A stretch of DNA of 64,000 nt from a virus. A program made the translations under genes and the position numbers. This document shows, in pieces, positions 7,143 to 63,025 of this stretch (its first letter is position 1; every line of letters begins with the position of its first letter). The notes under the pieces are model-generated. The model was not told the origin of the DNA and did no database searches. It worked only from the letters and a program-made list of their open reading frames with translations. The DNA lies in the UHGV virus genome UHGV-1358930. One strand, written 5' to 3'.

Positions 7143-7153
7143 AGATTTGATAT

Positions 7154-7997: not shown

Positions 7998-8071
7998 GCA
8001 GCTATAGTGTAATGGTAACACTCAACTCTTCCAAAGTTGTATTGCCGGTTCAAATCCGGTTAGCTGCTCCA
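7998..8071 (+). tRNA. tRNA-Gly (anticodon TCC), copy 3
   Basis: Acceptor gcagcta/tagctgc. Anticodon stem caact/agttg with loop CTTCCAA. T-arm gccgg-TTCAAAT-ccggt. CCA encoded. Confidence 0.8.
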
Positions 8072-12952: not shown

Positions 12953-12986
12953 ACATTGTAAGATACGTTACAATTGGAGATCAAAC

Positions 12987-31929: not shown

Positions 31930-32709
31930 ATGAAAAAACGAATATATCCAATATCTGCTGGAATTCGTGTTGAGAACAACAAATTTATATTTAAGAATGA
32001 AAATTCACCTGATGATATAATTGATTTCAAATATCCTCAGATATATCAATCGAAATTTGGAAAATACACTTATTGGTTCGGTTACAAGTTCAATGACACA
32101 GTTTCCTCTAAAGACAGATCTAAGTTCTTGCACGCTATCAAAGGATTATCCGAAGATCAGATATCTGATAATGATATTGTTGACTTTATAGACAGGCCAA
32201 TATTTGAGTTAGACAACTATATAAATACGTACAGCATATCTGCAGTTATTTACCCAGTATCTGGAAGAAGCAAGTTAGTTTCTAAAATAATAAGTGAAGT
32301 AGGGAGATTCACTTCACATGATACAAAGAGGCTGTCGTTTGAGTTTGTTAAAAATATTCCAAATAAAATTGAATTTGATTGGGAGCAATTTGAATCCGAT
32401 ACGTCGAATGATCTCAACAAATACAATCAAATGAAGAAATATGTAACAGAGGAATTGTTACCAGCTATTCATTCCTTAGATTACTTTTCTCTTGCAGAAA
32501 ATGTGAAACCTAAATATCGAAAGTATATAAAAAACTATTTGGCATTGTCTGAATCAGATGTAGCTAAACTAGCTTCGTTAAAAGGTGAAACTGTTCTTAT
32601 TATAGACGATATAAATACATCAGGTGCTACACTAGATGAGCTTGTCCGAAACATCAGACTACTAAATAACACGTGCAAGATTTTTATTTATACGCTTATC
32701 GGTAAATAG
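31930..32709 (+). CDS. type I phosphoribosyltransferase-domain protein (C-terminal PRPP-binding motif) with unknown about 150-aa N-terminal domain
   Basis: PRT type I signature VLIIDDINTSGATL near the C-terminus; TAGGAG RBS. Confidence 0.6.
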   Translation: MKKRIYPISAGIRVENNKFIFKNENSPDDIIDFKYPQIYQSKFGKYTYWFGYKFNDTVSSKDRSKFLHAIKGLSEDQISDNDIVDFIDRPIFELDNYINTYSISAVIYPVSGRSKLVSKIISEVGRFTSHDTKRLSFEFVKNIPNKIEFDWEQFESDTSNDLNKYNQMKKYVTEELLPAIHSLDYFSLAENVKPKYRKYIKNYLALSESDVAKLASLKGETVLIIDDINTSGATLDELVRNIRLLNNTCKIFIYTLIGK

Positions 32710-32904: not shown

Positions 32905-33654
32905 ATGAGTAAATTACGAAAGATCATTGTTTCAGAAATTGAGGACTACAGAGTTCTCTTGCGCAATGCGCCAGCTGTTACAATGATCTTTTTCTGTGTG
33001 TCTGTTATCTTAATGAACCTATTTGCGTCTAAAGAGCTACTAAATATTGAATATTTAGGGCTAGATTGCGGATTTTTGCTATCATGGCTCAGTTTTCTTT
33101 GCATGGATATGCTGACAAAGCGATTTGGTGCAAAACCCGCGATCAAACTTTCATTGTTTGCTGTTTTCCTCAACTTGCTTACATGTATATTCTTCTTTAT
33201 AGTTGCACACATCGGAAACAACTGGGCAGCTTTCTATACATACGAAAATGACATTGCTAACTCCGCTATAAATGAAACAATCGGAGGTACCTGGTATGTG
33301 TTAGTGGGATCAATGACTGCTTTCGTTGTTTCGTCAATTGTAAACGCACTGCTAAATGAAGGAATTGGTAAATTAGTTAAGAGGAAAAATTTTGTCGAAT
33401 ACGCTCTTAGGTCATATGCTTCTACAATGATTGGTCAGTTTGTAGACAATCTTGTTTTTGCAAGCTTAGTATCTAAGATTTTCTTTGGGTGGACATGGAA
33501 GCAGGTAGTATTTTGCTCACTCGCTGGAGCTATCGCAGAACTTCTATCCGAAGTAATTTTCAGCCCGATCGGATTTAAAGTTTGCAAGAAATGGGAGAAG
33601 CACAATGTAGGCGCGGATTATATCAAGTACACGCTTAGCAAAGAAAGGAGATAA
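32905..33654 (+). CDS. yhhQ: YhhQ/DUF165-family membrane protein (queuosine-precursor preQ0/preQ1 transporter family)
   Basis: 6-7 predicted TM helices; CMDMLTKRFGAKPAIKLSLFAVFLNLL resembles the YhhQ core (D..tEvyG motif); AAAGGAG RBS. Confidence 0.6.
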   Translation: MSKLRKIIVSEIEDYRVLLRNAPAVTMIFFCVSVILMNLFASKELLNIEYLGLDCGFLLSWLSFLCMDMLTKRFGAKPAIKLSLFAVFLNLLTCIFFFIVAHIGNNWAAFYTYENDIANSAINETIGGTWYVLVGSMTAFVVSSIVNALLNEGIGKLVKRKNFVEYALRSYASTMIGQFVDNLVFASLVSKIFFGWTWKQVVFCSLAGAIAELLSEVIFSPIGFKVCKKWEKHNVGADYIKYTLSKERR

Positions 33655-33660
33655 TTAAAC

Positions 33661-34341
33661 ATGTCAAATAACAAAGGAGTAGTAGTTGTAACTGGATCTT
33701 CTGGAGGTATTGGAGAGGCCATATGTAAAAAATTTCTATCCGAGGGGTTTGAAGTTCACGGAATTGATGTAGTAACTCCTTCGACAGAACTTCTACATGA
33801 TTTAAACTTCTATTCACACATAAACGATATTAGAAATTCTAATGATCTGCCAGACATTGACAAAGTGGAGTACTTGATCAATTGTGCAGGTACTCAAAAT
33901 TCATACGATGATATCGGAAATAATCTTATCGGTCTAATGAATACTACAGAGAAATATGGACTTCAATATTGGATTAAATCAATTGTAAACATGGCATCTG
34001 TATCCGCGCACAACGGATGTGAATTTCCTAAATACGTCGCGTCTAAAGGTGGTGTGCTCGCTTATACTATATGGACAGCCAAAGAAATTGCTACATACGA
34101 GAATCACCCAACATGTAACAGCCTATCATTTGGCGGAGTACTGACAGCACTTAATTCGGAAGTTATCTGTGACAAAGAAAAGTTCAACAAGATTATGGAC
34201 ATGACTCCGTTAAGGAAGTGGGCTACAGCTGAAGAGTGTGCAGAATGGACATACTTCATCTCAGTTGTAAATAAATCAATGTCAGGACAAGATATCATTA
34301 TCGATAACATGGAAACTAGAAACAATCAGTTTGTTTGGTAA
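33661..34341 (+). CDS. short-chain dehydrogenase/reductase (SDR) family oxidoreductase
   Basis: Rossmann TGSSGGIG at the N-terminus; catalytic YxxxK-like YVASK; AAAGGAG RBS. Confidence 0.6.
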   Translation: MSNNKGVVVVTGSSGGIGEAICKKFLSEGFEVHGIDVVTPSTELLHDLNFYSHINDIRNSNDLPDIDKVEYLINCAGTQNSYDDIGNNLIGLMNTTEKYGLQYWIKSIVNMASVSAHNGCEFPKYVASKGGVLAYTIWTAKEIATYENHPTCNSLSFGGVLTALNSEVICDKEKFNKIMDMTPLRKWATAEECAEWTYFISVVNKSMSGQDIIIDNMETRNNQFVW

Positions 34342-34350
34342 AGTATTCAA

Positions 34351-34406
34351 AGAGAGTTTTGTATTCCTTTGAAACCCTCTCTGAAAATAAAAATAATAAG
34401 GAGAAG
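34351..34406 (+). ncRNA. candidate preQ1-I-type riboswitch-like leader (hairpin + A-rich tail + SD) upstream of queF
   Basis: agagag..ctctct 6-bp stem, then gaaaataaaaataataaggag with the SD in the tail; architecture only, no model scan possible. Confidence 0.3.
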
Positions 34407-34413
34407 TAAAAAA

Positions 34414-35925
34414 ATGCTAAAATCAAACAATGGAAGAACATCCGAAGACTTATCAGGAGTAACTCTACTTGGTAATAACAACACTGAGTACAACTACGAC
34501 TATACTCCAGAAGTTCTAGAAACATTTGTAAACAAGCATCCTGACAACGATTATGTTGTCACATTTGATGCTTATGAATTTACAAGCAAGTGTGTCACCG
34601 GAGACACTATGATAGATGTTGCATGTAATGAAACTGACAATCCGGATGGAATTCCAATCAAAGATTTGGTAGGTACAGAAGGATATGTGTTTTGTGTAGA
34701 TCCCACTACATTACAACCATTATGTAGGAAGTATCGAGATGTACGAAAGACTGGAGAAAGTGTACCTGTAGTTAAAGTACTCATGCAAAGTTTGAGAACA
34801 GATGGAAAGGGTAACACATACTATGAATCTTCTGAAATCAAGTGTACACCTGATCATATGATATTGGTGAAAAAAGGATTCCATGATAGCGAATGGGTGT
34901 GTGCAAAAGATCTCAAACCTGGCATGAGGTTGATTGCAAATCAAAGAAGTGGAGATGTAATACGATCTAAACTTCGACACAGACTTATTGGGGAAGCAAT
35001 TTTTGATGAAGATATTATGAATATTCATCATATAGACGGTAATCATTACAATAATGACCCATCTAATCTATCTAATTTATCTTCTCATGATCATCACCAT
35101 CTTCATAGATCTCAAGAATATGGATACGATAATTTAGATGTATCATACTTAGTTGATCTGTATAACTCCGGAGAAAACTTCAACTCCATAGCAAAGATGT
35201 TCAACTGTGATGTATCTACCATTGAATCTAGAATAGGTAATATAGTTGGAAGACGGACACAATCAGAGTCATTATCACTACGAAATAACTTGTTGAATAA
35301 AGAGCGGGATAGCGAAATCTGTGAATTGTACAACAAAGGATACTTGCTATCTGAAATTGCAGATTACTTAAATATCCACAGTACAACAGTGTTAGGAGCA
35401 CTAGAAAGACACGGCATCCCTCGCAGAGAATCGAACTTCTCTAGGTACAATCGAAAGAAATTGAACCTCCCACCATTGAATCATAAAGTACTAGCTGTAC
35501 TAGATGGTGGATATGAAGATGTGTACAACATGGAAGTAGAAGGAGTTGAAAACTATTTTGCCAATGAAGTGATAGTCCATAACTGCCCAAAAACGGGGCA
35601 GCCAGATTTTGCAAAAGTTGTAATTAGTTACATTCCTAATGAGAGAATGGTTGAAAGCAAGTCCCTAAAGCTTTACCTCTTTTCTTTCCGCAATCATGGA
35701 GATTTCCACGAAGACTGCATGAACATCATCATGAAGGATCTAATTCATCTTATGGATCCGAAGTACATTGAAGTAAAAGGTATTTTTTCTCCAAGAGGAG
35801 GTATCTCCATCTTTCCCTTTGTTAACTACGCGAATCCGAAATTTAATTATCAGGATTTTGCAAAGTCTCGAATGCTGGAGGCGCTTAGAGATTCGAGCAA
35901 TAGAACAGTAAGATACGATATGTGA
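34414..35925 (+). CDS. queF: NADPH-dependent 7-cyano-7-deazaguanine reductase QueF (YkvM type), interrupted by an intein (extein 172 aa)
   Basis: N-extein ends ..AYEFTSK, C-extein starts [18 protein letters not shown]..; spliced junction [14 protein letters not shown] matches the QueF catalytic motif E(F/Y)TSLCPxTGQPD. Confidence 0.8.
34591..35583 (+). mobile_element. intein (331 aa) within queF carrying an HNH endonuclease domain and two HTH modules; inserted immediately before the QueF catalytic Cys, which serves as +1 residue
   Basis: Block [11 protein letters not shown] at the start; terminal VIVHN followed by extein Cys; HNH core [23 protein letters not shown]. Confidence 0.75.
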
Positions 35926-36023
35926 AACAACGGGAAGATATAAATATAGTAAAGTCTGTAGATACGTACAGCAAAAAAAAGCAGCAAACTCTAGAATAGA
36001 TTACAATTACTTAGAAAGGTTAG

Positions 36024-36767
36024 ATGAAAATGGAAAACAAAAGAAATTCAAACAAAAAAGCGTTGGTGCTCTCGTCAGGTGGAGTAGACTCCACTACTTG
36101 CGTAGGTATTGCTGTAAATGAATTAGGTTCTGAAAATGTTAGCACTGTATCGGTGTTTTATGGACAGAAACACAATAAAGAACTTGAATGCGCTGAAAAA
36201 GTAGCTGAATTTTATAATGTAAAGCACTATGTTCTTGACTTGTCTAATGTCCTTCAGTACAGCAACTGTTCTCTAATGAAGAACAGCACAGAAGAAATCC
36301 CTATGATGAGCTACGCAGAGCAGATTGAAAAGAATGGTAAACCATCAACAGAAGTTCCATTGAGAAATGGACTCATGCTCATGGCAGTTGGCTCATTAGC
36401 TATGCAACTTTATCCAGAAGCTGATGTCGATATTTACATTGGAGCACATGCCGATGATGCTGCAGGTAATGCTTATCCAGATTGCTCTGCAGAATTCATT
36501 CAAAACGTAAAAGAAGCAATATTGATTGGATCTAGATATAAAGTTAACTTAGTTTCTCCATTTGTGAATCATAACAAATCAGAAGTTGTTAAATTAGGGT
36601 TATCTATAGGTGCTCCGTATGAATTAACAACTTCCTGTTACAATGGCAGAGAGAAAGCTTGTGGATTGTGTGGAACCTGCAGAGATCGTATAGCTGCATT
36701 CAAAGCAAACAATGCAATTGACCCAATTGAATATGAAATTGACGACCCATTCAAAGAAATGCGATGA
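36024..36767 (+). CDS. queC: 7-cyano-7-deazaguanine synthase QueC
   Basis: PP-loop [14 protein letters not shown]; C-terminal zinc Cys cluster [10 protein letters not shown]. Confidence 0.9.
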
Positions 36768-36774
36768 TGTTCAA

Positions 36775-37371
36775 ATGGAAATATGGCGACCTGCTAAAGG
36801 ATATGAAGATAAATATGAGGTGAGCAATTTAGGACGAGTAAGAAATTCAAAGCATTATATCATGAAACCACATCTACAAGATGATGGATATCTTTGGATA
36901 TACCTTGCGTCTAAAACTAGTCCTAACAACACATCAATTCATAGGCTAGTTGCTAAAACGTTTATTCCGAATCCAGAAGGCAAACCGCAAGTAAATCACA
37001 TAGACGGGAACAAAACAAATAATCGAGTTGAGAATCTAGAATGGGTTACAGGATCTGAAAATGTTAAACATGCTTATGCCAATAATCTAATTGCAGACAA
37101 ATCTCCTGAAGGCATCAGAAATATTGTAGCAGCAGCTAGAAAATCATTGAAGAAATATTGCAACATCCCGATAATATGTGAAACTACAGGGCAAGAGTTT
37201 GAATCTATTCATCATGCTGCACTACATTATGATGTAGACGATACCACTATTCAAAACATCGTAAGAAATGTAACAAAAAGATCCAGAAAACTACCTGGAT
37301 TGAAATTTAGATTCAAATATCCAGAGATTACTTGTAGATCACCTCATAGAAAGAAACATTTAATTAAATAG
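36775..37371 (+). CDS. HNH homing endonuclease inserted between queC and queD
   Basis: [23 protein letters not shown]; [25 protein letters not shown]; C-terminal IENR/NUMOD-like module. The ORF listed from 36712 overlaps queC; the likely start is ATG 36775. Confidence 0.75.
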
Positions 37372-37387
37372 CTTTGGAGGAATGAGA

Positions 37388-37825
37388 ATGTATACAGTAA
37401 AAACAAAAGTATCTTTTGAAGCTGCGCATCGTCTATACAATGTAGACACATACTCAAAAGAATGCAGAGATAATCTCCATGGGCACTCATACAAAGTAGA
37501 AATTGTCGTAGGCGCAGATAACTTGAACTCTGCTGGAATGGTTATTGATTTCAAGCTGCTAAAAACAGTTATTCGAGAAGAGATTGAATCTAAATATGAT
37601 CATTCTTGTATATTGAGAAAATGCGATCCAATTGCAAATACTATCAAGGAAAACTGTAAGAAAGTTATCCTTGTTGACGAAAGTCCTACTGCAGAATGGA
37701 TGGCAAAAGAATTCTATGACATGATTGAATCTAAAGTTCATACGTATTCTTCTGATTTACATGTTGTTTCAATTGGAGTACAAGAAACAGAAAATAACAT
37801 TGCGTATTATCTTCCGGAGGAATAA
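37388..37825 (+). CDS. queD: 6-carboxy-5,6,7,8-tetrahydropterin synthase QueD
   Basis: CRDNLHGHSYKVEIVV zinc/catalytic motif; GGAGG RBS. Confidence 0.9.
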   Translation: MYTVKTKVSFEAAHRLYNVDTYSKECRDNLHGHSYKVEIVVGADNLNSAGMVIDFKLLKTVIREEIESKYDHSCILRKCDPIANTIKENCKKVILVDESPTAEWMAKEFYDMIESKVHTYSSDLHVVSIGVQETENNIAYYLPEE

Positions 37826-37827
37826 AC

Positions 37828-38469
37828 ATGAAAGTTATCGAATTATTTAATAGTATTGATGGAGAGGGCAAACGAGCTGGTATGCTCGCTACGTTTATAC
37901 GTCTGTCTACGTGCAATCTTAGATGCAGTTACTGCGATTCCGCTTACGCTTTCGATGATAAGCTTGCTGAAGAGATGTCAATTCAAAGTATTGTAGCAAA
38001 CTGCGACAAATATGATTGTCCGCAAATTACGCTAACTGGTGGAGAGCCTTTGATTTCCAGAGACGTAGAGCTACTTTTATCCGAACTTGATTCTCATGGA
38101 TATGACGTCAATGTGGAAACAAATGGGTCTATTGATCCATCCGCATATCATAAATACAAAAATGTTTGGTTCACAATTGACTGGAAATGCCCTTCTAGCG
38201 GTATGGAGTCAAAAATGAATCCGAAAGCATTTGAAACACTTCGTGAGCAGGATGTACTAAAATTCGTAGTAGGGTCAAATGAGGACTTACAAGATGCGTT
38301 ACACGTCATCAAGAAGTACAACCCAAAATGCTCAATCTATTTCAGTCCGGTATTTGGATATGATGCAAAAAATATCGTAGAATTCATGAAAGATCACAAA
38401 CTGAATGATTGCAAAGTTCAGCTTCAAATTCATAAGTATATCTATGACCCGAATGCTAGAGGAGTATGA
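37828..38469 (+). CDS. queE: 7-carboxy-7-deazaguanine synthase QueE (radical SAM)
   Basis: [10 protein letters not shown] radical-SAM cluster motif; GGAGG RBS. Confidence 0.9.
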
Positions 38470-38486
38470 TCAAAGAAGGTGTTGAT

Positions 38487-39062
38487 ATGAAAAATATTGA
38501 TAAAAACAAAATTGAAAAGCTGACAAGAGAGCTCTTAGTAGCTTTAGGCGATGATCCTGACAGAGAAGGGTTGAAGAAGACTCCAAGTCGAGTTGCAAGA
38601 ATGTGTGATGAATTATTTGAAGGTATGACACATTCGAATCACGAGATAGCTGAAATGTTCAATACATGTTTTGAAGATGTAAAAACTGGAGATCTTGTAG
38701 TGGAGAGCAATATTCCGATTCACTCCTGCTGCGAACATCATCTCATGCTGATGTATGATATGTCAGTAGCTATTGGATACATTCCAAATGGTAAAGTTAT
38801 CGGATTATCTAAGCTTGCTAGAATTTCTGACATGGTTGGAAAGCGACTTCAGTTGCAAGAACGAATCGGTTCAGATATCGCAGATATTCTCCACGAAATT
38901 CTCAATACCAATGACATCATTGTTGTCATTCAAGGAAAGCACGGATGCATGACAGCACGCGGCATTAAATCAAGAGAAGCAATAACTCGAACAGCTACAC
39001 TTAGAGGAAGATTTGAGTCAGATTCAGATCTACGATCCGAATTCTATTCTCTCATCAAATAA
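38487..39062 (+). CDS. folE: GTP cyclohydrolase I FolE
   Basis: CEHHLM active-site motif; N-terminus aligns with B. subtilis MtrA-type FolE ([17 protein letters not shown]). Confidence 0.9.
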
Positions 39063-39101
39063 CTTACTTCTGGATACAGATAAGTAGATTGAATCGTTAA
39101 T

Positions 39102-39137
39102 GTAGACGTACTAAACTATAGTGCGTCTACAATTTTA
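39102..39137 (+). terminator. possible terminator hairpin
   Basis: gtagacg..cgtctac stem followed by AATTTTATAT. Confidence 0.35.
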
Positions 39138-39188: not shown

Positions 39189-39800
39189 TTGAAAAAGCTG
39201 ATTAGATCTTCAACAACTGCTGTATATTCAACGCAGATCGCACCAAAAATATTAGAAATTTGGATTGTAGATGATGTTCGGCACTGCAGCGCATCCATAG
39301 CAGCTGCAGACGAAACTGCCGAAACTCGTGAAGGGCTAGAAACAGAGAAAACATCACAAAATAAAAATTCTAGAATAAGACGAATTGAGCCAAGTGCTGA
39401 TATCGAAGAATTTCTAAATAGTATGAAGAAAGCTCCTATTCTATTTATAGAAAGATCTGCAAAAAATTCGGCATTTTTGAAGTTATATAAAACATTATCT
39501 GGAAAATTGTTTGATGTGGCTGTAGCAAAAGAACTTCTGAATCAGCTTACAGTTTCTGATTATGTATATACTACGGAAAGTGATTCAGCTAATTACAAAG
39601 GAGATGAGTTAATTGTATTTGAACCTGTGCATGATCTAGTATCTAGAAAAAATGGAGTTGTATTGAAAAATGTCGTAATCTATATGAAAATAGATAAAAC
39701 AGAGTCAAACGAAGATGAGACAGTTTTAGTATCATTTCATTCCGCTGAATTTGAAGATGACAAACCGTATAGTTCTGCGAACAACAAGGAGGATAGATGA
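39189..39800 (+). CDS. hypothetical protein (TTG start)
   Basis: GAGG RBS; 203 aa. Confidence 0.4.
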   Translation: MKKLIRSSTTAVYSTQIAPKILEIWIVDDVRHCSASIAAADETAETREGLETEKTSQNKNSRIRRIEPSADIEEFLNSMKKAPILFIERSAKNSAFLKLYKTLSGKLFDVAVAKELLNQLTVSDYVYTTESDSANYKGDELIVFEPVHDLVSRKNGVVLKNVVIYMKIDKTESNEDETVLVSFHSAEFEDDKPYSSANNKEDR

Positions 39801-40276
39801 GGTACATGAAAATTTTTGCATTTGCGGATAAGAAAGATAGCATCAAAGACAAATTGAAAGAGAAATCAGATGATTTAGTATATCACCTCGTGAAAGTATT
39901 TTTGTTCCCTAACTGCGAAGTGAAACCTCACTGGTGTCAAGAAATCTACGGATTTATTCACAGCGTACCTAAAACTAAAAACAAGAATAAGTTCCCAGAC
40001 AAGACTTTCATCTTCAATAACACTTACGAAATCTGGGGAGATACAATTGAATCCTGTATCATAACTGCTATAAAGGATTATCCTAGTATAGTGCCATTAT
40101 TTGATCAGCACACCGGGTTAGCTATCTGCGAAACTGCAGTTAGAGAGTATTTTGAATGGTTATCTGAGGAGCTATCTAGTATCGGAAGAGTCGCATCTTC
40201 AGATGTATACAAGAAGATTGATGAGCTAATCGAAGAAGTAGTTCAAAAATTGAATAACACAACATATGCACTATAA
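39797..40276 (+). CDS. hypothetical protein
   Basis: AAGGAGG RBS; 159 aa. Confidence 0.45.
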   Translation: MRYMKIFAFADKKDSIKDKLKEKSDDLVYHLVKVFLFPNCEVKPHWCQEIYGFIHSVPKTKNKNKFPDKTFIFNNTYEIWGDTIESCIITAIKDYPSIVPLFDQHTGLAICETAVREYFEWLSEELSSIGRVASSDVYKKIDELIEEVVQKLNNTTYAL

Positions 40277-40332
40277 GGAAAAGAAATCTGAACTGAATCA
40301 TCAAAACGATAGGAATAAAGGAGAATTTGCTT

Positions 40333-40803
40333 ATGTATGTTAGGAAAATTATGACAGACACAACAAAGCATGCAATGGAGACATTGATGCGAAACATTGG
40401 AGGACCGTTTGGAGCTGCAATTGTTAAAAACGGAGAAGTAATCTGTGTAGAATCAAATTCGGTGTTAAGGGATAAAGACCCAACAGCACATGCGGAAATG
40501 AATGCTATTCGATCTGCATGCAGAAAGTTGAAGACTTACGATCTAAGTGACTGCGAATTGTATGCAACTGGCAGCCCTTGTCCTATGTGCTTAAGTGCAA
40601 TAATCTGGGCAAATATCAAGACAGTATACTATTCTGGTACGTACGAAGATTGCAAGAAGATTGGATTTAGAGATGACTTCATTTTCAATTTCATCAAGAA
40701 TGATTGCAAGAACGATGATATTGTTAAACTAGAATTGCATGACAATGATCTGGCAAATACATTGTACAACGCATATGAAACATTCTCAGGAGAATTATAC
40801 TAA
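40333..40803 (+). CDS. CDA-fold nucleobase deaminase, closest to guanine deaminase GuaD/TadA family
   Basis: IGGPFGAAIV..DPTAHAEMNAIR..SPCPMCLSAIIWA: zinc-ligand HAE and PCxxC motifs with spacing typical of Bacillus GuaD-type guanine deaminases. Confidence 0.65.
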   Translation: MYVRKIMTDTTKHAMETLMRNIGGPFGAAIVKNGEVICVESNSVLRDKDPTAHAEMNAIRSACRKLKTYDLSDCELYATGSPCPMCLSAIIWANIKTVYYSGTYEDCKKIGFRDDFIFNFIKNDCKNDDIVKLELHDNDLANTLYNAYETFSGELY

Positions 40804-42169: not shown

Positions 42170-42823
42170 ATGGATGTAGTAAAGAATATGCGTGGAAGTA
42201 TTTGGTGGTTGAAAGACGAATTTGATAAATACAAAGGTGAAAGAGGCATCCTTAGAGGTTCTAGGCCGGTTATCATTATGAATAATCCAGCAAACGAATA
42301 TAATGATTGCACTATTACATATTTGCCGATTTCTAAGTGCGAATCTCATGCTGGTGATGATAGTCGAATTCAAATGTTTTATCAGGTACCTATTCAGATT
42401 CCTGGTAATAAATCTAGTTATGTATGTTGTAATAGCATCATGACTACAACTACTTCTCATCTTGGAGAATATGTTGGGCAGATTTCAGAAGATAAGCTAA
42501 AAGAAGTCGAAGCCGAATTGATGCGTTATCTTTCTCTTTCTGAAAAAGTCGTTACACGAGAAGTAATAAAAGAGGTTAGGGATACAGACAAGGCAACGAA
42601 AACAACTTCTTTTTCTATTACAGACGCTGTCGCTTGTCCAGAACTCAAAAAAGTATATTCTAGTTGTACTGAAATGGCTAAAGATCTTAACTGCTCTCCT
42701 GCGTCTATCAGCAAGTCGAGTAGATGGGGAAGTAAGCTGATGCACAAATACACAGTGTTTAAAGTAGCAACGGCTGCTGGAAACTATGTTTGCAAAACTA
42801 AGGAGGAAATCAAAAATGAGTGA
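42170..42823 (+). CDS. protein with N-terminal PemK/MazF-like (toxin endoribonuclease fold) domain fused to a C-terminal putative DNA-binding module
   Basis: GSIWWLKDEF..KGERGILRGSRPVIIMNN...CTITYLPISK resembles the MazF/PemK core (G.E..G.RP..v.s ... v.PiTs). Confidence 0.45.
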   Translation: MDVVKNMRGSIWWLKDEFDKYKGERGILRGSRPVIIMNNPANEYNDCTITYLPISKCESHAGDDSRIQMFYQVPIQIPGNKSSYVCCNSIMTTTTSHLGEYVGQISEDKLKEVEAELMRYLSLSEKVVTREVIKEVRDTDKATKTTSFSITDAVACPELKKVYSSCTEMAKDLNCSPASISKSSRWGSKLMHKYTVFKVATAAGNYVCKTKEEIKNE

Positions 42824-49302: not shown

Positions 49303-49879
49303 TTGTATATATACACCATATTGTACATACAAACAATGCGACTTAGCTTGTCCTAATAGAGCTGAAGTGAATTGTTGGTTCAAACGATGCCGACTTGATA
49401 TGTCAAATAATTGCTTGCATACTAATATCCGAAATATTGAGAAAGCCGAGGATCTACTAAGTAACAAGTATGGAGAAACTGTGTGGTTTCCCACAGATAA
49501 TCCTTCAGATGCAAGCGACACTATTTGCTACGTAGCTATTTGCAAATATGGTAAAGGTACTGCTCTTGGAAACGGAATATACAATCTGGATTTTGCAAAA
49601 TTTATAGATATGATCAAGGAGTCCTGGAATACGCATTTTGAAACAGATAACTTAATTCAGATGCGTGTGTGGTCTTTGTCTGCAAATTACCTAGTTATCT
49701 CAAATCTAGATTATGTTAGATTTCAAGATTTTGAAAGTCAAACGTTGCTAAGGCTTCTGAATGATCGAAGAGATTATACAAAGACAACTGTAGTAGTTAC
49801 TAGTAAAGAACCTTTGGTCGGCAGCGGAAATTTCTTTCCTAGATTGACTTCTTTGCTAAAGGGGGTCAAGAGCAATTGA
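49295..49879 (+). CDS. hypothetical protein, Cys-rich N-terminus (possible helicase-associated factor)
   Basis: 194 aa immediately upstream of the helicase gene; function not inferable from sequence alone. Confidence 0.45.
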   Translation: MHDCIYTPYCTYKQCDLACPNRAEVNCWFKRCRLDMSNNCLHTNIRNIEKAEDLLSNKYGETVWFPTDNPSDASDTICYVAICKYGKGTALGNGIYNLDFAKFIDMIKESWNTHFETDNLIQMRVWSLSANYLVISNLDYVRFQDFESQTLLRLLNDRRDYTKTTVVVTSKEPLVGSGNFFPRLTSLLKGVKSN

Positions 49880-52299
49880 CGAATTCAGTAGAACTTCAAG
49901 TTATTTGTAAAATTTTAACAAGTCAAGATGATTCTGAAATTGATAGGCTGTGTGCGTTTGATGAATCCTATTACGCAGTATTCAAAGATCAGATCAAATT
50001 TATTCTAGATCATAGAGAAAAATATCATACTGTCCCAGACTTGTTTACGTTCCAAGCTCAATTCGAAGACATTGTTTTGATTGATGTAAACGAATCTGCA
50101 GATTTTTTAGTAGACGGACTTCGGAAAAACAAGCAGCAGATCATACTCTTACAAACATTCAATAAGCTATCTGAGTTAGGTTCTGCAGACGTTTCTGAAG
50201 CTTGGCAGTTCTTACAATCCCAATGCGACAAAGCTGCTCAACTTGATAATTCTAACCCGATGGATATCATCAAAGAAGCTCACAAGCGAAGTGATCAAGT
50301 TTTATCGCTAAGTAATCAAACAAGAATTCCTACAGGATTCAAAGAAGTAGATGAAACAATGTATGGAGGATTGTCAACTGTTGAAGAACTTTGTCTTGTA
50401 GTTGCTAGAACTAACACAGGTAAAGCTCAGCCTCTTTGGAGTAATATCTTAACACCTACTGGGTGGAAGCGTATGCGAGATATTCAAGTAGGAGACATTG
50501 TATGCGGTAGAGATAATGACAATGGTAAAGTAGTTCAAATATTTCCGCAAGGTACAATTGACTACTATCGTGTAAAGTTTGATGATGGTACTTATACGGA
50601 GTGTTCTGCAGATCATCTTTGGGAAGTTCTGGATAGTGAACGAAGGAAGCATGATAGAAAAACTTATGGTCAGTATCTTACATTGACTACTCGAGATATT
50701 CGGAATCATATGTATCGCAGATACTCTGTTGATATGTGTGAACAAATTGAATTCGAGAGTGCTTTTGATACAGATAGTGAACTTGACGGATATTTTTTAG
50801 GAGCATTTATCGGGCATGGTAGAAATGTAGGTAACAAGCTATATATTCATTCTCTGTCCGATGTTTCAAAGCGACGTATAATTGATGCATTGTCTAAATA
50901 TCGTTGTCAATTCACAGAAAATGATCCAAATACACTCGTGATTGAGGATAAGAATGATGGTAAGCTTATCCAAAAGATGTTCGAGTACAACTTGATGAAC
51001 TGCAAAGTCATTGATAGACATATTCCGGATATATATTTTCATAGCCCTGTAAATGTTAGAAAAGCTCTGTTATCAGGTCTCTGCGATACAGATAGCACAA
51101 TGTTATCAAAAAATCATAGAGGTTGGGTTTTCGTTACATCTTCAGATCAGCTTAAATCTGATTTTGTTTACATTGCTAGATCTTTAGGTGTAAAAGCAAA
51201 GGTGTCGACTGCAAGATCTGGTAGATGGGTTGACTTAGGTGTATCGCACGTTGCGAATACGTACCACAGGGTTATGTGTATCTCAAAATTCAATCCGTTT
51301 TATGGTTCACCAAATTACACAGAATTTGAACGCAGACAGGATAAAACTAAATTTAAAAATCGCAAGCGTGTTTGCAAATTCATTGATTCTATTGAATACG
51401 TAGGTAAGACGGAATGCCAGTGTATCATGGTAGACAATAAGACGCATACATATATTACAGATGATTTTATTGTCACACATAACACCTGGGTTACTACTAA
51501 GATGATGGAGTCTGCACAAGCGAATGGATTTCCTGTACTATATTATAGCCCAGAGATGCAATCTGCTTTCATTGGCACACGATTTGATACCTGGAGAGGT
51601 CACTTCCGAAATAGCGATATTCAACGAGGTAAATACAGCGAAGACTACATTCAGTACATCAAAGACATTGTTAAAGAGGAAACTGGTGCATTTGTTGCAG
51701 AAGACAAAGATATGCCAGGAGGAAAAACAACTGTCAGGTCGATTGAAACTCTAGTCAAGCGACATCATATAAAGCTTGTTATCATTGATGGTCTGTCTTA
51801 TATGGCAGATACAGAAAAGTCTGATAGCGATGTTATTAAGTATAAAAATATATGTACTGGACTATTCCGAATGTCTAAAACATATGGATGTGCTGTAGTA
51901 GTATCTGTACAAGCTAATAGAGACACTAAATCTAATGTCGATGACAAAGGAGTCCCGTGGCCTGATATGTATTCGATTGAAGGCTCAGACCATCCAGGAC
52001 GTATTGCAACTCAAGTATTTGCGCTTCGACAATTGTACGAAGAGCATACATTAGAGATAAAGCTGTTGAAGACTAGAAATGCAAAGAATGCAAATCCTAC
52101 GTTCGCATATGTATGGGATCCAAATACAGGAAACACAGAGTTTGTTTCGGATGATGCATCGGCTGCTCCTCCTTCTGCTCCTGCACAGCCTAGCAAGTTC
52201 TCAACGCCGACAGTGTCAGCAAAGATTGTACACACCGATATAGATGATAATCTAATCGATGCCAGTACAGATGACGATCTAGATGACGTTGAGTTTTGA
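49876..52299 (+). CDS. DnaB-like replicative helicase (T4 gp41-like), interrupted by an intein in the P-loop
   Basis: Exteins join as ..LVVARTNTGK|TWVTTKMMESAQANG (Walker A GxxxxGKT). C-terminal RecA-like motifs: Walker B LVIIDGLSYM, SVQANRD. Confidence 0.8.
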   Translation: MTNSVELQVICKILTSQDDSEIDRLCAFDESYYAVFKDQIKFILDHREKYHTVPDLFTFQAQFEDIVLIDVNESADFLVDGLRKNKQQIILLQTFNKLSELGSADVSEAWQFLQSQCDKAAQLDNSNPMDIIKEAHKRSDQVLSLSNQTRIPTGFKEVDETMYGGLSTVEELCLVVARTNTGKAQPLWSNILTPTGWKRMRDIQVGDIVCGRDNDNGKVVQIFPQGTIDYYRVKFDDGTYTECSADHLWEVLDSERRKHDRKTYGQYLTLTTRDIRNHMYRRYSVDMCEQIEFESAFDTDSELDGYFLGAFIGHGRNVGNKLYIHSLSDVSKRRIIDALSKYRCQFTENDPNTLVIEDKNDGKLIQKMFEYNLMNCKVIDRHIPDIYFHSPVNVRKALLSGLCDTDSTMLSKNHRGWVFVTSSDQLKSDFVYIARSLGVKAKVSTARSGRWVDLGVSHVANTYHRVMCISKFNPFYGSPNYTEFERRQDKTKFKNRKRVCKFIDSIEYVGKTECQCIMVDNKTHTYITDDFIVTHNTWVTTKMMESAQANGFPVLYYSPEMQSAFIGTRFDTWRGHFRNSDIQRGKYSEDYIQYIKDIVKEETGAFVAEDKDMPGGKTTVRSIETLVKRHHIKLVIIDGLSYMADTEKSDSDVIKYKNICTGLFRMSKTYGCAVVVSVQANRDTKSNVDDKGVPWPDMYSIEGSDHPGRIATQVFALRQLYEEHTLEIKLLKTRNAKNANPTFAYVWDPNTGNTEFVSDDASAAPPSAPAQPSKFSTPTVSAKIVHTDIDDNLIDASTDDDLDDVEF
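50425..51483 (+). mobile_element. intein (353 aa) with LAGLIDADG homing endonuclease; class-3-like (Ala1, WCT motif)
   Basis: Starts AQPLWSNILTPTGW; ends FIVTHN|T. Block B ..ADHLW, block F ECQCIMV, block G Thr-His-Asn. LAGLIDADG motifs LDGYFLGAFIGHG and LLSGLCDTDS. Confidence 0.65.
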
Positions 52300-52514: not shown

Positions 52515-53651
52515 TTAGGAGAAAGCTATTCTCAAGCCCTCGTTCAATATATTCTTTGATGCATTGATATCTCTATCATGTGTTGTTTGACAATTAGGAC
52601 AAGTCCAATTTCTAACTTCAAGATTTTTGACTTCTGGATTTTTGAATCCGCAACAGCTACAAGTTTGAGAAGACGGAAAGAAGGCGTCTATTTTGACAAG
52701 TTGTTTTCCATACCAGCTGCACTTGTAAGTCAATAGTTCAACGAATTTTGACCAGCTTGCGTCTGAAATTGCTCTTGCTAGTTTATGATTCTTGACCATA
52801 TTTTTGACTTTCAAGTCTTCAACACAGATTATGTCGTGGTTTTTGACAAATTCTGTTGACAGCTTGTGCAAGAAATCATTTCGTTGATTTGAAACTTTCT
52901 CAAATTGTTTAGCAAGTCTGATTCTTGATTTGTTTCTGTTATTAGATCCTTTTTGCTTCTTCGAGAGCTGTCTTTGAAGTCTTCTTAACTTCTTAGTAGA
53001 CTTTGAAAGGTATTTCGGATTTTTGATCTTTTCACCGTCTGAAGTTATTGCGAAATCTTTGATGCCGAGGTCAATTCCTACAACAGATCCAGTTTTGTCA
53101 AACTCTTCAATTTCAACATCTTTGCAACAGATACTTGCAAAATATTTTCCTGAAGCTGTTTTTGAGATGGTTGCCGAAAGCGGAGTTCCTTTGACATTTA
53201 AATTTCCTTTGAATTTAACCCATTTCAATTTAGGCAAGAAGATCTTGTTATCTAAACAATGAAATTGTGCAGGTGTGGAGTATGTAGCCTTATATGACTG
53301 TCTACTTGAAAGTTTCTTCTTAAATTTAGGATAACCTGGTTGCTTTCCATTCTTTACGTTTCTAAAGAAGTTTTGATACGCAGTATCAAGATCTCTAAGA
53401 GACGATTGCAAAGCCATTGCTTCAGGTTCTTTCAACCATGAATATTCGTCAAGCTTCTTGAGCTTTGTTAAATCTGCAGAATTTTGATTATATGTATTTG
53501 ACTTTCTTGCCTCTTCATAATCTTTGATGGATTTAGCAAGATAGTAGTTGTAGACAAATCTGCAGCAGCCAAAGGTTTTTGCAATTTGCTCAATCTGCTG
53601 CTTGTTCGGATATATCCGTATTTTATAAGCTTTCAGAATCATTTTGGTCAT
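52515..53651 (-). CDS. tnpB: TnpB (IS607/IS605-family OrfB, RuvC-like nuclease with C-terminal zinc finger)
   Basis: N-terminus [23 protein letters not shown]; zinc finger [24 protein letters not shown]. Confidence 0.85.
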
Positions 53652-54243
53652 CTGAAAGTGCCTCCTTGATTTTAGCTACGCTTCTCTTAGAATACATTTT
53701 CATTGAGTAACAGTGCAGTAAACTTACGATTTCTTCAAAAATTTCTTCAGAATCAAGTTTTTCGGATCCTAGTTGGGACGCAACAACTATCTCTGTTCCA
53801 AATTTTCTAAAAAGATGATAAAATAGATCAAATCCTACTCTAGACAGTCTGTCTTTATAATTGATAACTACTTTCTCAACTTTATATTCCAATACATCGT
53901 CTAATAGTTCAAAAAACTGTTTTCTGTTTTCAAAAGAAATTCCGGAAGCAACCTCTTGAAAAACACCATCGACTTGAATTCCGGAATTCATGCAAAAACT
54001 GTTCAAAGATTCAAGTTGGTTCGCTAGATCCGATTTTTGAGATATTGTAGAAACTCTAGCGTAGATATAATTTTTTCTTGTTTGACCGTTATTTAATATA
54101 GAGTAGACGTCTTTATCATGATAGATGCGCTTACCTGTAGGTGTTAAGTCATAATGAATGAGTCCTCTTTTGCAATAATGACCAAGTGTTGGCTGTGAAA
54201 TATTCAATAGTTGTAACACTTGTTTAGCTTTCATATTGATCAC
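53623..54243 (-). CDS. tnpA: IS607-type transposase TnpA (small serine recombinase with N-terminal MerR-like HTH)
   Basis: [26 protein letters not shown]; catalytic serine motif [14 protein letters not shown]; 29-nt overlap with tnpB. Confidence 0.85.
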
Positions 54244-59207: not shown

Positions 59208-60476
59208 TTGAGTTTATTTACCAAGTCACAAATGGCGAAATTCAATGAAGTTGCCGAACGAAGCAAACAGCTTAACAAAGAAAAACCAAAGTCTGTAAAT
59301 GTATCTACAGTAAATGCGGAATTGAAGTCGATGTCAGATTCTGTGCTAGAATACTTCAAAGACTCCCCTGCTATCTGCATTCGAACCGCTGATCAGCTAC
59401 ATGAATACATTGATAAATGTATCGAAGCTGGATACGCTGGTATAGATACAGAAACAACGGGACTAGACAGACAAAGAGATTACATTGTAGGCGCGTCTTT
59501 ATATTATCCGGATGGTACAGAATGTTATATTCCGATGAAACATAAGATCCCTATTTTCGAAACTCCTTACAAAAATCAACTGTCTTATGAAGAAGTAACT
59601 AAAGAATTCAAACGACTAGAAAACAGCAACATACGACTCATTTTTGCAAATGCTGACTTCGACTTAGCAATGATCTACAAGGATCTAAAAGTTGATTTCA
59701 ACGATAGATTCTATTATGATGTTATTCTTGCATGGCGTTGTTTGAAGGAGAATGAGTTACACAATGACTTGAAATTCCTTTACAATAAATATGTATTGAA
59801 AGGAAAAGGAGATCCTAAACGTTTTAGCGATTTCTTTTCTGTAAAGCTGTTCCCATATTCTGATCCTGAAATCGCTAAATTGTACGCAGCAAACGACGCA
59901 AAAATCACATTTCAACTGTTCAAGTGGCAGCTTCCTTATGTTACAGAAAGTCATCCTAAGTGTCAGAAAGCTCACCTAGAAGCAATATCTAGACTCATTT
60001 GGAACATAGAGTTTCCACTGGTTAAAGTCTGCCAGAATATGTATAGAAGAGGTTCATACATTGATTCTAATGTTGCTAGTGTTTTGAAAAAGCGATACAG
60101 AGATGAATACAATGTAGAAGTCAAAAAGCTACAAGACATGGTACAAAAAATCATTGATAATACGAATATAGCATATTCAGGTAAACGTCCATTTACTAGA
60201 GGAGCAGATTTCAACCCATCTTCACCTCCTCAAGTTAAATATTTGATATACAATCTACTTCAAATTCCTAAAGGATCGTCTTCTGGAACAGGTAAAGAAG
60301 TATTGAACGAACTTAATCTGCCTGTAACAAATCAGATACTGAAGGTAAGATCTCTATCTGTACTTATCAATACATTCGTAGAGAAGCTACCAGCTGCCGC
60401 AAGTCTGGATCATAGAATTCATGGTCAGTTCAAGCAGGTGGGTGCAGCCACGGGCAGGTTGTCTTGTGCCGAGCCT
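59208..60476 (+). CDS. family A DNA polymerase, exon 1 (3'-5' exonuclease domain and start of the polymerase domain; TTG start)
   Basis: Exo I motif GIDTETTGL; ends at ..KQVGAATGRLSCAEP (PolA motif TGRLSSxxPNLQNIP), then out-of-frame sequence and a stop. Confidence 0.75.
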
Positions 60477-61382
60477 AAACATGATAAATCAGATTGGGCT
60501 CGTAAAATCGAGTTAATTCAGGGAAGGGTAGCAGCTTGACGCTGTGAGATAACCCTGAGCCAAGGCTCTCATATATCTACTTAGGAGGTACACGATATGA
60601 GAAAGATTCAATTCAATGAAGAGACCATCAATGCAATTAAAAATTTTATAGAGTCTGGTCACACAATGGAAGAGACATGTAACAGATTTACGCTCAAATA
60701 CGATACATTGAAACGTGTAATGTTTGAGAACAATCTGAAGCCGTATAGAGCAGATAAATCACATCCCGTTATCTTCACTAGAGATGAGGAAAACATCGTA
60801 TGTAAGCTATATTCGACAACTTCAATGACAATGAAAGATATCTGTAAAGAAGTGAAGCTACCTGATTACGCTGTGCAGAAAATACTATCGGATAATTTTT
60901 CTGAAAAATACAGAAATGAAAGGAAAGCAAAGCTTTATAGATTGTCCAAACGGTGCGAGAATAGTCCGTGGTTTCAGAAATACGGAGCAGACTCTTCTCA
61001 GTGGGTCGGAGGCGTTGTAGACGATGGCAACGGATATGATATGATCAAAAAACCTGAGTGGTACACAGGTAGAAAGTGTTCTGATTATGTCTTTTTACAT
61101 ACAGTTGTGATGTGTGAGCACTTAGGTCTAACTGAACTTCCTAAAGGATATGTAGTACATCATATCGACGGAAACAAGAAAAATAACACAATAGATAATT
61201 TAGCGTTGATGACCGTGTCAGGACACAGTAAGTTACATTTGTTGATGAAGAATCTATGCAAGGTGCAGAGACTATCCGAACAGGAGTAAGCGAAAGCTGA
61301 AATGCTAGACAATGGTTGTGTATGACATCTATCATTCCTACTAGTTATACAAGCCATCGAAGATATAGTCCACAAATAATTG
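60477..61382 (+). mobile_element. putative group I intron 1 in the DNA polymerase gene (encodes HNH endonuclease)
   Basis: Exon 1 ends after U (cct|); the intron ends in G immediately before exon-2 codon AAC; free-standing ORF with its own RBS inside. Confidence 0.6.
60597..61289 (+). CDS. intron-encoded HNH homing endonuclease
   Basis: TAGGAGG RBS; HNH core VVHHIDGNKKNNTIDNLALMTVSGHSKLH. Confidence 0.8.
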   Translation: MRKIQFNEETINAIKNFIESGHTMEETCNRFTLKYDTLKRVMFENNLKPYRADKSHPVIFTRDEENIVCKLYSTTSMTMKDICKEVKLPDYAVQKILSDNFSEKYRNERKAKLYRLSKRCENSPWFQKYGADSSQWVGGVVDDGNGYDMIKKPEWYTGRKCSDYVFLHTVVMCEHLGLTELPKGYVVHHIDGNKKNNTIDNLALMTVSGHSKLHLLMKNLCKVQRLSEQE

Positions 61383-61450
61383 AACCTGATGAATATCCCG
61401 TCGCATGCGGTTGATATTCGACATATGTTCAGAGCAACTCCCCAGAAAGA
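61383..61450 (+). CDS. DNA polymerase exon 2 (3' boundary uncertain)
   Basis: Begins NLMNIPSHAVDIRHMFRA, completing the PolA motif P-NLQNIP..IR.aF; the downstream read-through does not match the expected DYSQIELR region. Confidence 0.5.
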
Positions 61451-62848
61451 TTACACAGTTGAATCAGAAGTAGATGACAATAACGAAGTATCATTCGTTA
61501 TTGATAATGGACATGAATTACAAACATCTGAAGGATATAAGCCAGTAGTAGATATTGTTCCCGGAGATGTTGTAATGTTTGATGATAAGGAGGTATCAAG
61601 CTTAATTGTCAAAGAAGTTGAAACTAAAGGTACGTCAACCCGAGTACGTTTTGATGTCATCTGACTACAGTTTACGAAAGTTGGCTGTAGTAAAACCTTG
61701 TTAAGTCGATGAATACTTGATAGATAATTCTATAACCTAAATACAAGAATTGGTTCGACTATCAAGTTAATATCGAGCAAAATAGGACCTTTTATCTTGT
61801 TGAGTATAGTCTCTTAAAAATTGGAGGTATTCGACATGATAATATATAAAATATACAATGATGTTAATTCTAAGCTTTACATCGGTCAAACAACAAAATC
61901 GCTTGAAGAAAGAATAAATGGGCATCATTCTTCTATGATAGGAGGGCAAGATACTCATCTATATCGAGCAATGCGAAAATACGGATGGGAAAAGTTTCAT
62001 TTTGAAATAATATCCAGAGCTGATAGTCAAGATGAATTAAATTATCTTGAAGAGTATTATATCCGTAAGTTAGATACAATAAGAAATGGATATAACATGG
62101 CTCCAGGAGGATCAAAAAATGTTATGTACTCATCTATCGTAGCAGCTAAACATGATGCTAAAATGAGAACAGATTCTGTAAGAAAGAAAATATCAGAATC
62201 AATGAAAAAGTCTTATGCTTCACGCGGTGGTCCCTCAGAAGAACACAGGAAGCATCTTTCACAAGCCAAGAAGGAATATTATCAAACTCCTGAAAGCGAA
62301 TTGACACGAGAAAGGTTTAGAAAGTCATTCAAGCTATCTCCTGAGCATTATAAGGCACTGAATGACGCGAAAAACAAAAGTGTATATTGCATAAATGAAT
62401 CTAATGAAGTAGTTGCAAAATTTGATAGGGTCAAAGATGCAGCTATTTGGTGGATGTCTACTGGGTACAAAGTTAAACATTATGATCAACTTTGTGACAA
62501 AATAAAAGAGTCCAGCAAGCAAAATAGATTCATAAAGGGGCTAAAATGGTTCTATTGTGTGTAGAGACTATCGAAAGCTAGAAATTGACATTCAGAGAAA
62601 TCTGTAAATGATTTTAGGTAAATCAGGTCAGTTGAGATAACCAAGTGAGTAGAGTACAGCTCAAGTGAGTTAGCATCTGCATGATATTAGTGTAGAGTAA
62701 GCCTATTGAATGGAAATTCAAGGGTTCATTTGAATTGGTGATAGATTCAAATGTTCAAGAGATAGTCCGGCACTCTTGGTGACAAGAGAAATGTTTAACG
62801 AACATTCAACTAATTAAGCAGCAAGAACCAAAAATTTGCGCATACGTA
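61451..62848 (+). mobile_element. putative group I intron 2 (encodes GIY-YIG endonuclease); boundaries approximate
   Basis: Non-coding flanks around a free-standing GIY-YIG ORF; exon 3 resumes at about 62849 after an in-frame stop. Confidence 0.4.
61821..62564 (+). CDS. GIY-YIG homing endonuclease
   Basis: YKIYNDVNSKLYIGQTT GIY-YIG motif; TGGAGG RBS. Confidence 0.8.
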   Translation: MEVFDMIIYKIYNDVNSKLYIGQTTKSLEERINGHHSSMIGGQDTHLYRAMRKYGWEKFHFEIISRADSQDELNYLEEYYIRKLDTIRNGYNMAPGGSKNVMYSSIVAAKHDAKMRTDSVRKKISESMKKSYASRGGPSEEHRKHLSQAKKEYYQTPESELTRERFRKSFKLSPEHYKALNDAKNKSVYCINESNEVVAKFDRVKDAAIWWMSTGYKVKHYDQLCDKIKESSKQNRFIKGLKWFYCV

Positions 62849-63025
62849 GGTAACATCAAAGAACTTTGCGAAGGTTTTGCAAACGGGAAAGATGCTTACG
62901 CGATGATCGCAGCTGTTTCTTTCAATAAGTCATATGAAGAATGCTTAGAGTTTCACCCTGTTACGCATGAGTATCAGCCTGAAGGTAAAGCAAGAAGAAC
63001 AGAATCGAAGTCCGTACTTTTGGGT
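62849..63025 (+). CDS. DNA polymerase exon 3 (boundaries approximate)
   Basis: GNIKELCEGFANGKDAYAMIAAVSF..RRTESKSV aligns with the PolA region NLIEAFRRGLDIHTKTAMDIF..RRQAKAVNFG; the frame then diverges and stops at 63067. Confidence 0.5.

Follow-up and report, generated by a model that had tools for sequence, protein, structure and literature searches.

Why should a phage that encodes a pathway to 7-deazaguanine bases also carry a guanine deaminase? The question is raised by the virus genome UHGV-1358930, of which we analysed one stretch of 64,000 nucleotides (hereafter the window): a gene for a deaminase of the Bacillus type lies at 40333-40803 on its plus strand, 1.3 kb downstream of a same-strand block encoding YhhQ, a short-chain dehydrogenase, QueF, QueC, QueD, QueE and FolE. 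We propose, with moderate confidence, that phages took a guanine deaminase from the purine catabolism of their hosts and employ it as an accessory to DpdA-dependent 7-deazaguanine modification of DNA, in which it would clear guanine while sparing preQ0 and preQ1.

Identity of the deaminase

The deaminase open reading frame (ORF) is intact, with an ATG at 40333, a TAA at 40801-40803 and 156 codons, and the same 156-aa product was called independently on five public metagenome contigs of 20-200 kb.

40333-40803, plus strand: guanine deaminase of the Bacillus type with the cytidine deaminase (CDA) fold (156-aa ORF; PF00383; PDB 1WKQ/1TIY; predicted fold)
40318-40323, plus strand: Shine-Dalgarno sequence AAGGAG, seen in the sequence, 9 nt 5' of the deaminase ATG

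An earlier note on this DNA, made from the letters alone, had read the product as a Bacillus-type guanine deaminase and not an enzyme of the dCMP-deaminase type, and its observation on this interval is confirmed. Each motif that it quoted was found, IGGPFGA occupying residues 22-28, HAE residues 53-55 and PCPMC residues 82-86, and the separate dCMP deaminase that it mentioned exists as well (ORF 12927-13406; PF00383, E = 3.5e-13). Against Pfam, the protein matches the cytidine/deoxycytidylate deaminase zinc-binding family (PF00383, E = 3e-24), and among PDB sequences the top match is the guanine deaminase of Bacillus subtilis (1WKQ/1TIY, E = 1e-32), followed by the Arabidopsis guanosine deaminase GSDA (E = 5.5e-28), with TadA enzymes far lower. 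It falls below the NCBIfam equivalog cut-off for TadA (62.1 bits vs. 150; E = 5e-17) and below that for ComEB (41.2 bits vs. 219), and a search of PHROGs returned no matching family, the best hit being a partial dCMP-deaminase match confined to residues 46-114.

The predicted structure leads to the same enzyme. An AlphaFold model of the monomer, built from an alignment of 49 homologues (mean predicted local distance difference test score, pLDDT, 94.3), has as its top fold match chain A of 1TIY, with a template-modelling (TM) score of 0.90 and a root-mean-square deviation (rmsd) of 2.1 Å over 157 columns. This superposition spans the full length of the protein, including an extended C-terminal arm that is domain-swapped in the B. 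subtilis enzyme; in the model, the arm is consistent with a domain-swapped dimer. GSDA superposes on the core of the model only (rmsd 1.1 Å over 110 residues, but 16-17 Å over the full length), and TadA structures align with only about 100 core residues (TM 0.58-0.63). Identity as TadA was rejected on its bit score and this limited fold coverage, and identity as a dCMP deaminase or ComEB on the ComEB score and the partial PHROGs match.

As described in the literature (PMC9081823; PMC9739398), guanine deaminases of the CDA type combine a zinc site with an Asn that anchors the substrate, a pocket of hydrophobic character, a lid formed by the C-terminus and two acidic proton shuttles, which are required (PMC9081823). 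The numbering of residues in the phage protein coincides with that of the B. subtilis enzyme, whose sequence was checked against 1WKQ. The zinc site is complete (H53 of HAE, with C83 and C86 of PCxxC), both shuttles are kept (E55 and D114, corresponding to E79 and E143 in the guanine deaminase NE0047), and so are the anchoring Asn (N42, i.e., N66 in NE0047 and N69 in GSDA) and the stacking Phe (F26). The protein ends in GELY, and 27 of 28 viral homologues and 79 of 80 bacterial ones also end in Tyr. Across 12 diverse viral lineages and the 49 database homologues, none of these eight residues varies (F26, N42, H53, E55, C83, C86, D114 and, at the C-terminus, Y156); the first seven are also invariant in 78 of 78 bacterial sequences, in one of which Y156 is gapped. 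An alignment of viral with bacterial copies contains no column with a viral-specific residue. From the sequence and the model, we infer that this is a working guanine deaminase of the B. subtilis GuaD/YknA type, its catalysis being predicted.

Association with 7-deazaguanine genes

The earlier note had suggested examining co-occurrence with que genes in related genomes. IMG/VR was scanned with the deaminase protein and with an alignment of its viral copies, yielding 82 loci that contain a GuaD-type gene; the bacterial set comprised the 80 best loci, which are species representatives, mostly from gut and rumen Bacillota and their allies. A locus was scored as linked when DpdA and/or FolE, QueD, QueE, QueC or QueF lay within 10 kb of the deaminase.

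Viral loci, all: 65 of 82 linked
Viral clusters at 90% identity: 32 of 48 linked
Viral clusters at 70% identity: 17 of 29 linked
Bacterial species-representative loci: 1 of 80 linked

The outcome was strongly positive, with Fisher p-values for viral versus bacterial linkage running from 6e-28 to 2.5e-11, including the de-replicated sets. Even the only linked bacterial locus (L042) is a phage-like array of DpdA, GuaD, QueC, QueD, QueE and FolE. Within the viral loci, pathway genes are mostly no more than 2.5 kb away and frequently abut or overlap the deaminase ORF, and the identity of the neighbour varies by lineage (QueC, QueD, FolE, DpdA or a phosphoribosyltransferase, PRT). QueF is found in 15 of the deaminase-bearing viral loci, and the gene also accompanies clusters that lack QueF.

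At three viral loci (L193, L212 and L213), a YhhQ-type transporter lies about 660-710 nt from the deaminase and none of the biosynthesis genes occurs within 10 kb; these phages may import a 7-deazaguanine base rather than make it.

The relationships among the copies suggest that phages captured the deaminase repeatedly from their hosts and into the same pathway. Three viral lineages are nearer to chromosomal bacterial copies than to other viral lineages (74 vs. 68%, 71 vs. 61% and 69 vs. 54% identity) and interleave with bacterial copies in a neighbour-joining tree, which carries no support values. By these identities, some of the captures appear to be recent.

In the window itself, the nearby deazaguanine cluster that the earlier note had described is present upstream on the same strand, where the domains of YhhQ, QueF, QueC, QueD, QueE and FolE were all identified. 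Genes follow one another on the plus strand in the order YhhQ, short-chain dehydrogenase, QueF, QueC, HNH homing endonuclease, QueD, QueE and FolE, such that all five preQ genes (FolE, QueD, QueE and QueC, together with QueF) fall within 34369-39062.

32905-33654, plus strand: putative preQ0/preQ1 transporter of the YhhQ/Vut_1 family (PF02592, E = 1e-22)
33661-34341, plus strand: short-chain dehydrogenase (PF00106, E = 4e-13)
34369-35925, plus strand: QueF (preQ0 reductase), interrupted by an intein (PF14489, E = 2e-32, residues 412-490; Intein_splicing, HNH_3, HTH_38)
36024-36767, plus strand: QueC (PF06508, E = 1e-52)
37382-37825, plus strand: QueD, PTPS family (PF01242, E = 3e-27)
37828-38469, plus strand: QueE-like radical SAM enzyme (PF04055, PF13353; the order QueD-QueE-FolE is kept in relatives)
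38466-39062, plus strand: FolE, GTP cyclohydrolase I (PF01227, E = 2e-62)
39101-39131, plus strand: terminator-like hairpin after FolE, 13 bp with a T-rich tail (only suggestive, the count of such sites being no higher than the shuffled expectation)
39189-39800 and 39797-40276, plus strand: two ORFs between FolE and the deaminase, with no Pfam match

Given its position, the deaminase may in this phage belong to the next transcription unit after FolE. The second of the two intervening ORFs (39797-40276) is syntenic in clade B at 72-75% identity and has a weak match to phrog_31822, and the short-chain dehydrogenase between YhhQ and QueF is likewise syntenic, with 56-65% identity, in the sister clade (L002-L008). 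In QueF, the nitrile-reductase domain is restricted to residues 412-490, the intein carries HNH and helix-turn-helix (HTH) domains, and in relatives about 110 residues match.

The base-exchanging enzyme would be encoded outside the window. Searches with Pfam and with our own DpdA hidden Markov model (HMM) found no homologue of DpdA or of tRNA-guanine transglycosylase (TGT) within the window, the 20-kb loci from clades A and B gave no match to this HMM either, and Pfam did not recognise DpdA in any relative. DpdA was located by tblastn to annotated DpdA genes, by the HMM, and by further viral scans that walked along the contig. Downstream of PolA, relatives encode a protein of about 300 aa without a Pfam match; it proved to be a transglycosylase of the DpdA1 type, sharing 32-40% identity with DpdA as annotated in phages MS1, Flasso, Dp-1 and CAjan. 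The contig IMGVR_UViG_3300029032_000001, which is 99-100% identical to the window, encodes DpdA at L188:10345-11331 (HMM E = 2e-73; 38-39% identity to DpdA of Bacillus phage Flasso and Streptococcus phage Dp-1). There the distance from the deaminase to the downstream dpdA is about 31 kb, the sister clade has the gene at an equivalent distance, and DpdA is present in five of the five clade-B contigs common to both scans. By its gene content, the near-identical contig would encode a complete preQ1-type DNA modification system and, by inference, so would the phage of the window. Of the characterised systems, that of Dp-1 comes closest; in the DNA of this phage, dPreQ1 amounts to about 1.7% of G (PMC6884629).

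A proposed role in guanine removal

DpdA acts in the manner of a TGT: guanine is driven out, the enzyme becomes covalently joined to the DNA, and this intermediate takes an incoming base. In the role that we propose, DpdA would excise guanine from replicated phage DNA and put in preQ1, each exchange liberating one free guanine, and this guanine would compete with preQ1 for the enzyme-DNA intermediate, because enzymes of the DpdA type also accept free guanine as a substrate. By converting guanine to xanthine and ammonia, the deaminase would provide an irreversible sink; in some related phages, an adjacent purine PRT could then salvage the xanthine or guanine. The quantities involved may be considerable: with 10-30% of G replaced, a 124-kb genome of 37.6% GC and a burst of 50-100, we estimate that about 0.4-2.3 mM guanine would be set free in 1 fL. 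Such concentrations far exceed the solubility of guanine, and they are also higher than the affinities of TGT enzymes, which are typically micromolar. Exchange of [14C]guanine into DNA is the standard assay of DpdA (PMC10164549).

There is also a structural reason for which the intermediates of the pathway would escape this sink. To be captured, a substrate would have to be hydrogen-bonded at N7 by Asn42 and by Tyr156 of the C-terminal lid, so that preQ0 and preQ1 would remain untouched, since 7-deazaguanines lack the N7 that these two residues read. The Arabidopsis enzyme provides the parallel: 7-deazaguanosine is bound by AtGSDA in a near-perfect pose and yet is inert, and, with N7 lost, there are no hydrogen bonds to Tyr185 of the C-terminal lid or to Asn69, and the lid stays open (PMC10663702). 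The guanine deaminase NE0047, for its part, accepts hardly any alteration of the guanine scaffold (PMC9081823). That phage enzymes keep the bacterial function is argued by the lack of viral-specific residues, by the apparently recent captures, and by the occurrence of the gene in clusters both with and without QueF. The sequences show the family of the enzyme, its intact active site, its place in the cluster, its co-occurrence with the pathway in phages and a DpdA gene in the near-identical contig; our proposal goes beyond them in three conditional parts, namely that the substrate would be guanine and not guanosine, that 7-deaza compounds would be discriminated against, and that DpdA would benefit.

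Several points weigh against this role. In the window, the deaminase is 3' of the terminator-like hairpin, and in the near-identical contig it is 31 kb from dpdA. Only 3 of 72 sampled DpdA loci have a deaminase within 6 kb, and a search of cultured phages in GenBank returned no close copy of it; because of these two results, DpdA evidently works without the deaminase, which is an accessory and not a core component. (A megablast of the locus against GenBank phages likewise gave no match.) Adjacency could also be inflated, in that phage genes of nucleotide metabolism tend toward replication modules anyway, and the direction of transfer is read from an unsupported neighbour-joining tree and pairwise identities. 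Finally, the nearest characterised enzymes are distant (37-45% identity to the B. subtilis enzyme and 35-46% to AtGSDA), and specificity for guanine cannot be separated from that for guanosine by sequence: the ribose contacts of GSDA are made by backbone atoms (PMC9739398), and for that reason sequence cannot decide whether specificity is of the GSDA type.

Alternative explanations

Rather than removing guanine for the benefit of DpdA, the deaminase might recycle it: with an adjacent PRT, or with the Xpt of the host, it would send guanine by way of xanthine to XMP, GMP and GTP, thereby feeding FolE and keeping up the synthesis of preQ compounds. GTP is the precursor of the pathway and FolE belongs to the cluster. 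Of the 15 related viral loci with a purine PRT, most have this gene about 0-20 nt from the deaminase, and the best PDB matches of its product are the purine PRT 1VDM and the xanthine-guanine PRT (XGPRT) of E. coli. However, a xanthine-guanine PRT could use guanine directly, in which case deamination adds nothing, and neither the phage of the window nor the majority of deaminase loci has a credible purine PRT. We regard recycling as an unlikely explanation when taken by itself, although it is compatible with guanine removal and both may act together.

In its own right, the purine PRT of these loci (e.g., L021:9481-10008, L010:10472-10897, L191, L194, L195, L220 and L228) looks like a second, undescribed purine-salvage accessory of DpdA clusters, as judged from its sequence matches and position. 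An ORF of 259 aa in the window (31930-32709, plus strand) was considered as a pathway PRT and rejected: its Pfam match is below threshold and covers the last 35 residues, it matches nothing in PDB or PHROGs, and contig L001, otherwise 99% identical, lacks it and has about 2.7 kb of different sequence at that position. Also rejected was a nucleotide-level route, in which a 7-deaza nucleotide made by the PRT would be incorporated by the polymerase (cf. tubercidin and toyocamycin), 12 of the 15 PRT loci having DpdA within 10 kb.

Alternatively, the deaminase could be a generic auxiliary gene of purine metabolism, serving pool balancing or nitrogen release and lying near que genes only because nucleotide-metabolism genes of phages gather in replication modules. 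The clusters do sit in DnaB-primase-PolA modules, 17 of the 82 viral loci have neither que genes nor DpdA within 10 kb, and in the window the terminator-like hairpin intervenes between FolE and the deaminase. But a gene so rare in phages (with no PHROGs family and no close copy in a GenBank phage) would hardly be expected to have 59-79% of its viral copies linked to que or DpdA, to have entered the same cluster in several apparently independent captures, or to be paired, at the three further loci noted above, with the precursor transporter YhhQ alone. This explanation seems to us improbable.

The enzyme might instead deaminate guanosine or deoxyguanosine, as does plant GSDA, acting on nucleosides from the breakdown of host nucleic acids. 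AtGSDA is its second-best match in PDB (E = 5.5e-28); both have N42, E55, a C-terminal Tyr and, at position 114, an acidic residue, and the NCBI label of the bacterial homologues is merely 'nucleoside deaminase'. Against these similarities, the full-length model fits the B. subtilis enzyme (TM 0.90, 2.1 Å) and GSDA fits only the 110-residue core, guanine deaminase activity is proven for B. subtilis YknA, and GSDA has been reported almost exclusively from plants (PMC9739398). We consider a nucleoside substrate decidedly improbable.

The earlier note had offered two functional ideas, of which the first, depletion of competing guanine, fits the evidence. Its second idea was that the enzyme deaminates a 7-deazaguanine (preQ0, preQ1 or 7-carboxy-7-deazaguanine, CDG, whether as base, as nucleoside or in DNA) to a 7-deazaxanthine-type base, and this is disfavoured. 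What speaks for it is genomic adjacency to the preQ pathway only, and a low promiscuous activity is possible. But the N7-reading pair, Asn42 and the terminal Tyr156, is invariant, 7-deazaguanosine is inert in AtGSDA because those two bonds are lost (PMC10663702), and NE0047 is intolerant of scaffold changes (PMC9081823). There are, moreover, no viral-specific substitutions, recently captured copies reach as much as 74% identity to bacterial chromosomal genes, and the gene accompanies cyano pathways (without QueF) and aminomethyl pathways (with QueF) alike. Such an activity is therefore very unlikely; and that gut phages carry a 7-deazaxanthine-type base, made from free preQ0 or preQ1 or from the base in DNA, is a conjecture against which the evidence argues and to which we attach minimal probability. 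If true, such a base would be one never before reported in DNA.

That the protein is a TadA-like deaminase of tRNA adenosine-34, for which the A34 tRNA of the phage itself (4950-5026) might be a substrate, is scarcely credible: the CDA fold is common to both, the TadA model does match (E = 5e-17) and the window has a tRNA with anticodon AUA, but the score is 62 bits against an equivalog cut-off of 150, TadA structures cover about 100 residues (TM about 0.6), the guanine-deaminase-specific D114 and a C-terminal Tyr lid that closes the pocket are present, and linkage is to que and DpdA genes and not to tRNA genes.

Relation to known systems

The closest known enzyme is the B. subtilis guanine deaminase GuaD/YknA (1WKQ, 1TIY; CDA superfamily, COG0590). 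Both proteins are 156 aa long and have the same zinc site, E55, D114, N42, F26, Tyr156 and fold. They are about 38% identical, and they differ in that the phage enzyme, like its gut-bacterial homologues, has R113 and D115 where the B. subtilis enzyme has D113 and S115. Their settings differ as well, the phage gene standing beside a 7-deazaguanine pathway and the B. subtilis gene in a nitrogen-regulated context of purine catabolism. With Arabidopsis GSDA (PDB 7DBF), the phage enzyme has in common the core, the Asn and the N7-reading C-terminal Tyr lid, and since GSDA is inert to 7-deazaguanosine, the phage enzyme is predicted to spare preQ0 and preQ1. GSDA, however, is a plant enzyme that requires ribose and does not bind guanine, and its C-terminal arm is arranged unlike that of the model.

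Among phages, the relevant comparison is with the DpdA/preQ1 systems of Streptococcus phage Dp-1, Escherichia phage CAjan and phage 9g, the DpdA of the near-identical contig being 39% identical to that of Dp-1. Unlike the system considered here, those that have been described are without a guanine deaminase or a purine PRT, and in ours some 31 kb separates dpdA from the biosynthesis genes. The two reference surveys of phage 7-deazaguanine clusters make no mention of a deaminase or a phosphoribosyltransferase, and the open-access and bioRxiv literature contained no relevant paper joining guanine deaminase with DpdA, preQ0, deazaguanine or phage. The enzyme is thus an ordinary member of its family, and it is its systematic, phage-specific recruitment into DpdA/7-deazaguanine clusters that appears to be unreported.

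A precedent for clearing a nucleotide pool exists in the 2-aminoadenine (Z-genome) phages, whose DatZ and MazZ hydrolyse dNTPs before replication. The logic would be the same, in that a canonical competitor is destroyed so that the modified base prevails; but the phage deaminase would act on a free base and in a post-replicative exchange, and its fold is unrelated.

If the proposed role is correct, a dedicated guanine sink would make up a new class among the accessory factors of post-replicative base exchange. DpdA should then be limited by free guanine in vivo, and a guanine deaminase could raise the yields of engineered DpdA/TGT labelling systems. The proposal also bears on why phages with DpdA differ so widely, replacing anywhere from 0.01% to 100% of genomic guanine. 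Annotation is affected, too: because PHROGs and NCBIfam have no matching model, pipelines will label such genes 'dCMP deaminase' or 'TadA', and this mislabelling hides a marker, given that in viral contigs the deaminase flags a 7-deazaguanine cluster in about 60-80% of cases.

Other features of the window

Nine tRNAs lie at 1869-8071. One of them (4950-5026, plus strand) has the anticodon loop CUAUAGG and thus the anticodon AUA, with A34; ARAGORN calls it Tyr(ata), it scores 62.7 bits against the Rfam tRNA model, its variable arm is short, and its body is Ile-like by eye. In a phage producing preQ1, it is odd to find an A34 tRNA for a codon that a G34/Q34 tRNA would usually read. In the same region, Rfam reports an abiF RNA at 3359-3395 (plus strand), its 38.3 bits just exceeding the gathering score of 37.

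The genome is heavily colonised by selfish elements. The DnaB helicase gene (49876-52299, plus strand) contains a Hom_end homing-endonuclease insertion, and the gene for a family A DNA polymerase (59208-63957, plus strand) is split by an HNH ORF (60597-61289) and a GIY-YIG ORF (61821-62564). Free-standing NUMOD4-HNH genes occur at 11154-12153 and 36712-37371. ORFs of the TnpB/IS605 OrfB type are found at 5772-7028 (plus strand) and within 52515-54243 (minus strand), the second of which adjoins a serine resolvase with a MerR-type HTH (53623-54243) and is inserted between DnaB and primase. Downstream of the deaminase, at 42170-42823 (plus strand), a PemK/MazF-like toxin domain is fused to a DNA-binding NUMOD1 motif; in the sister clade, this ORF is conserved at 87-88%, and the ORF that comes after it, of 329 aa (phrog_1221), is conserved as well.

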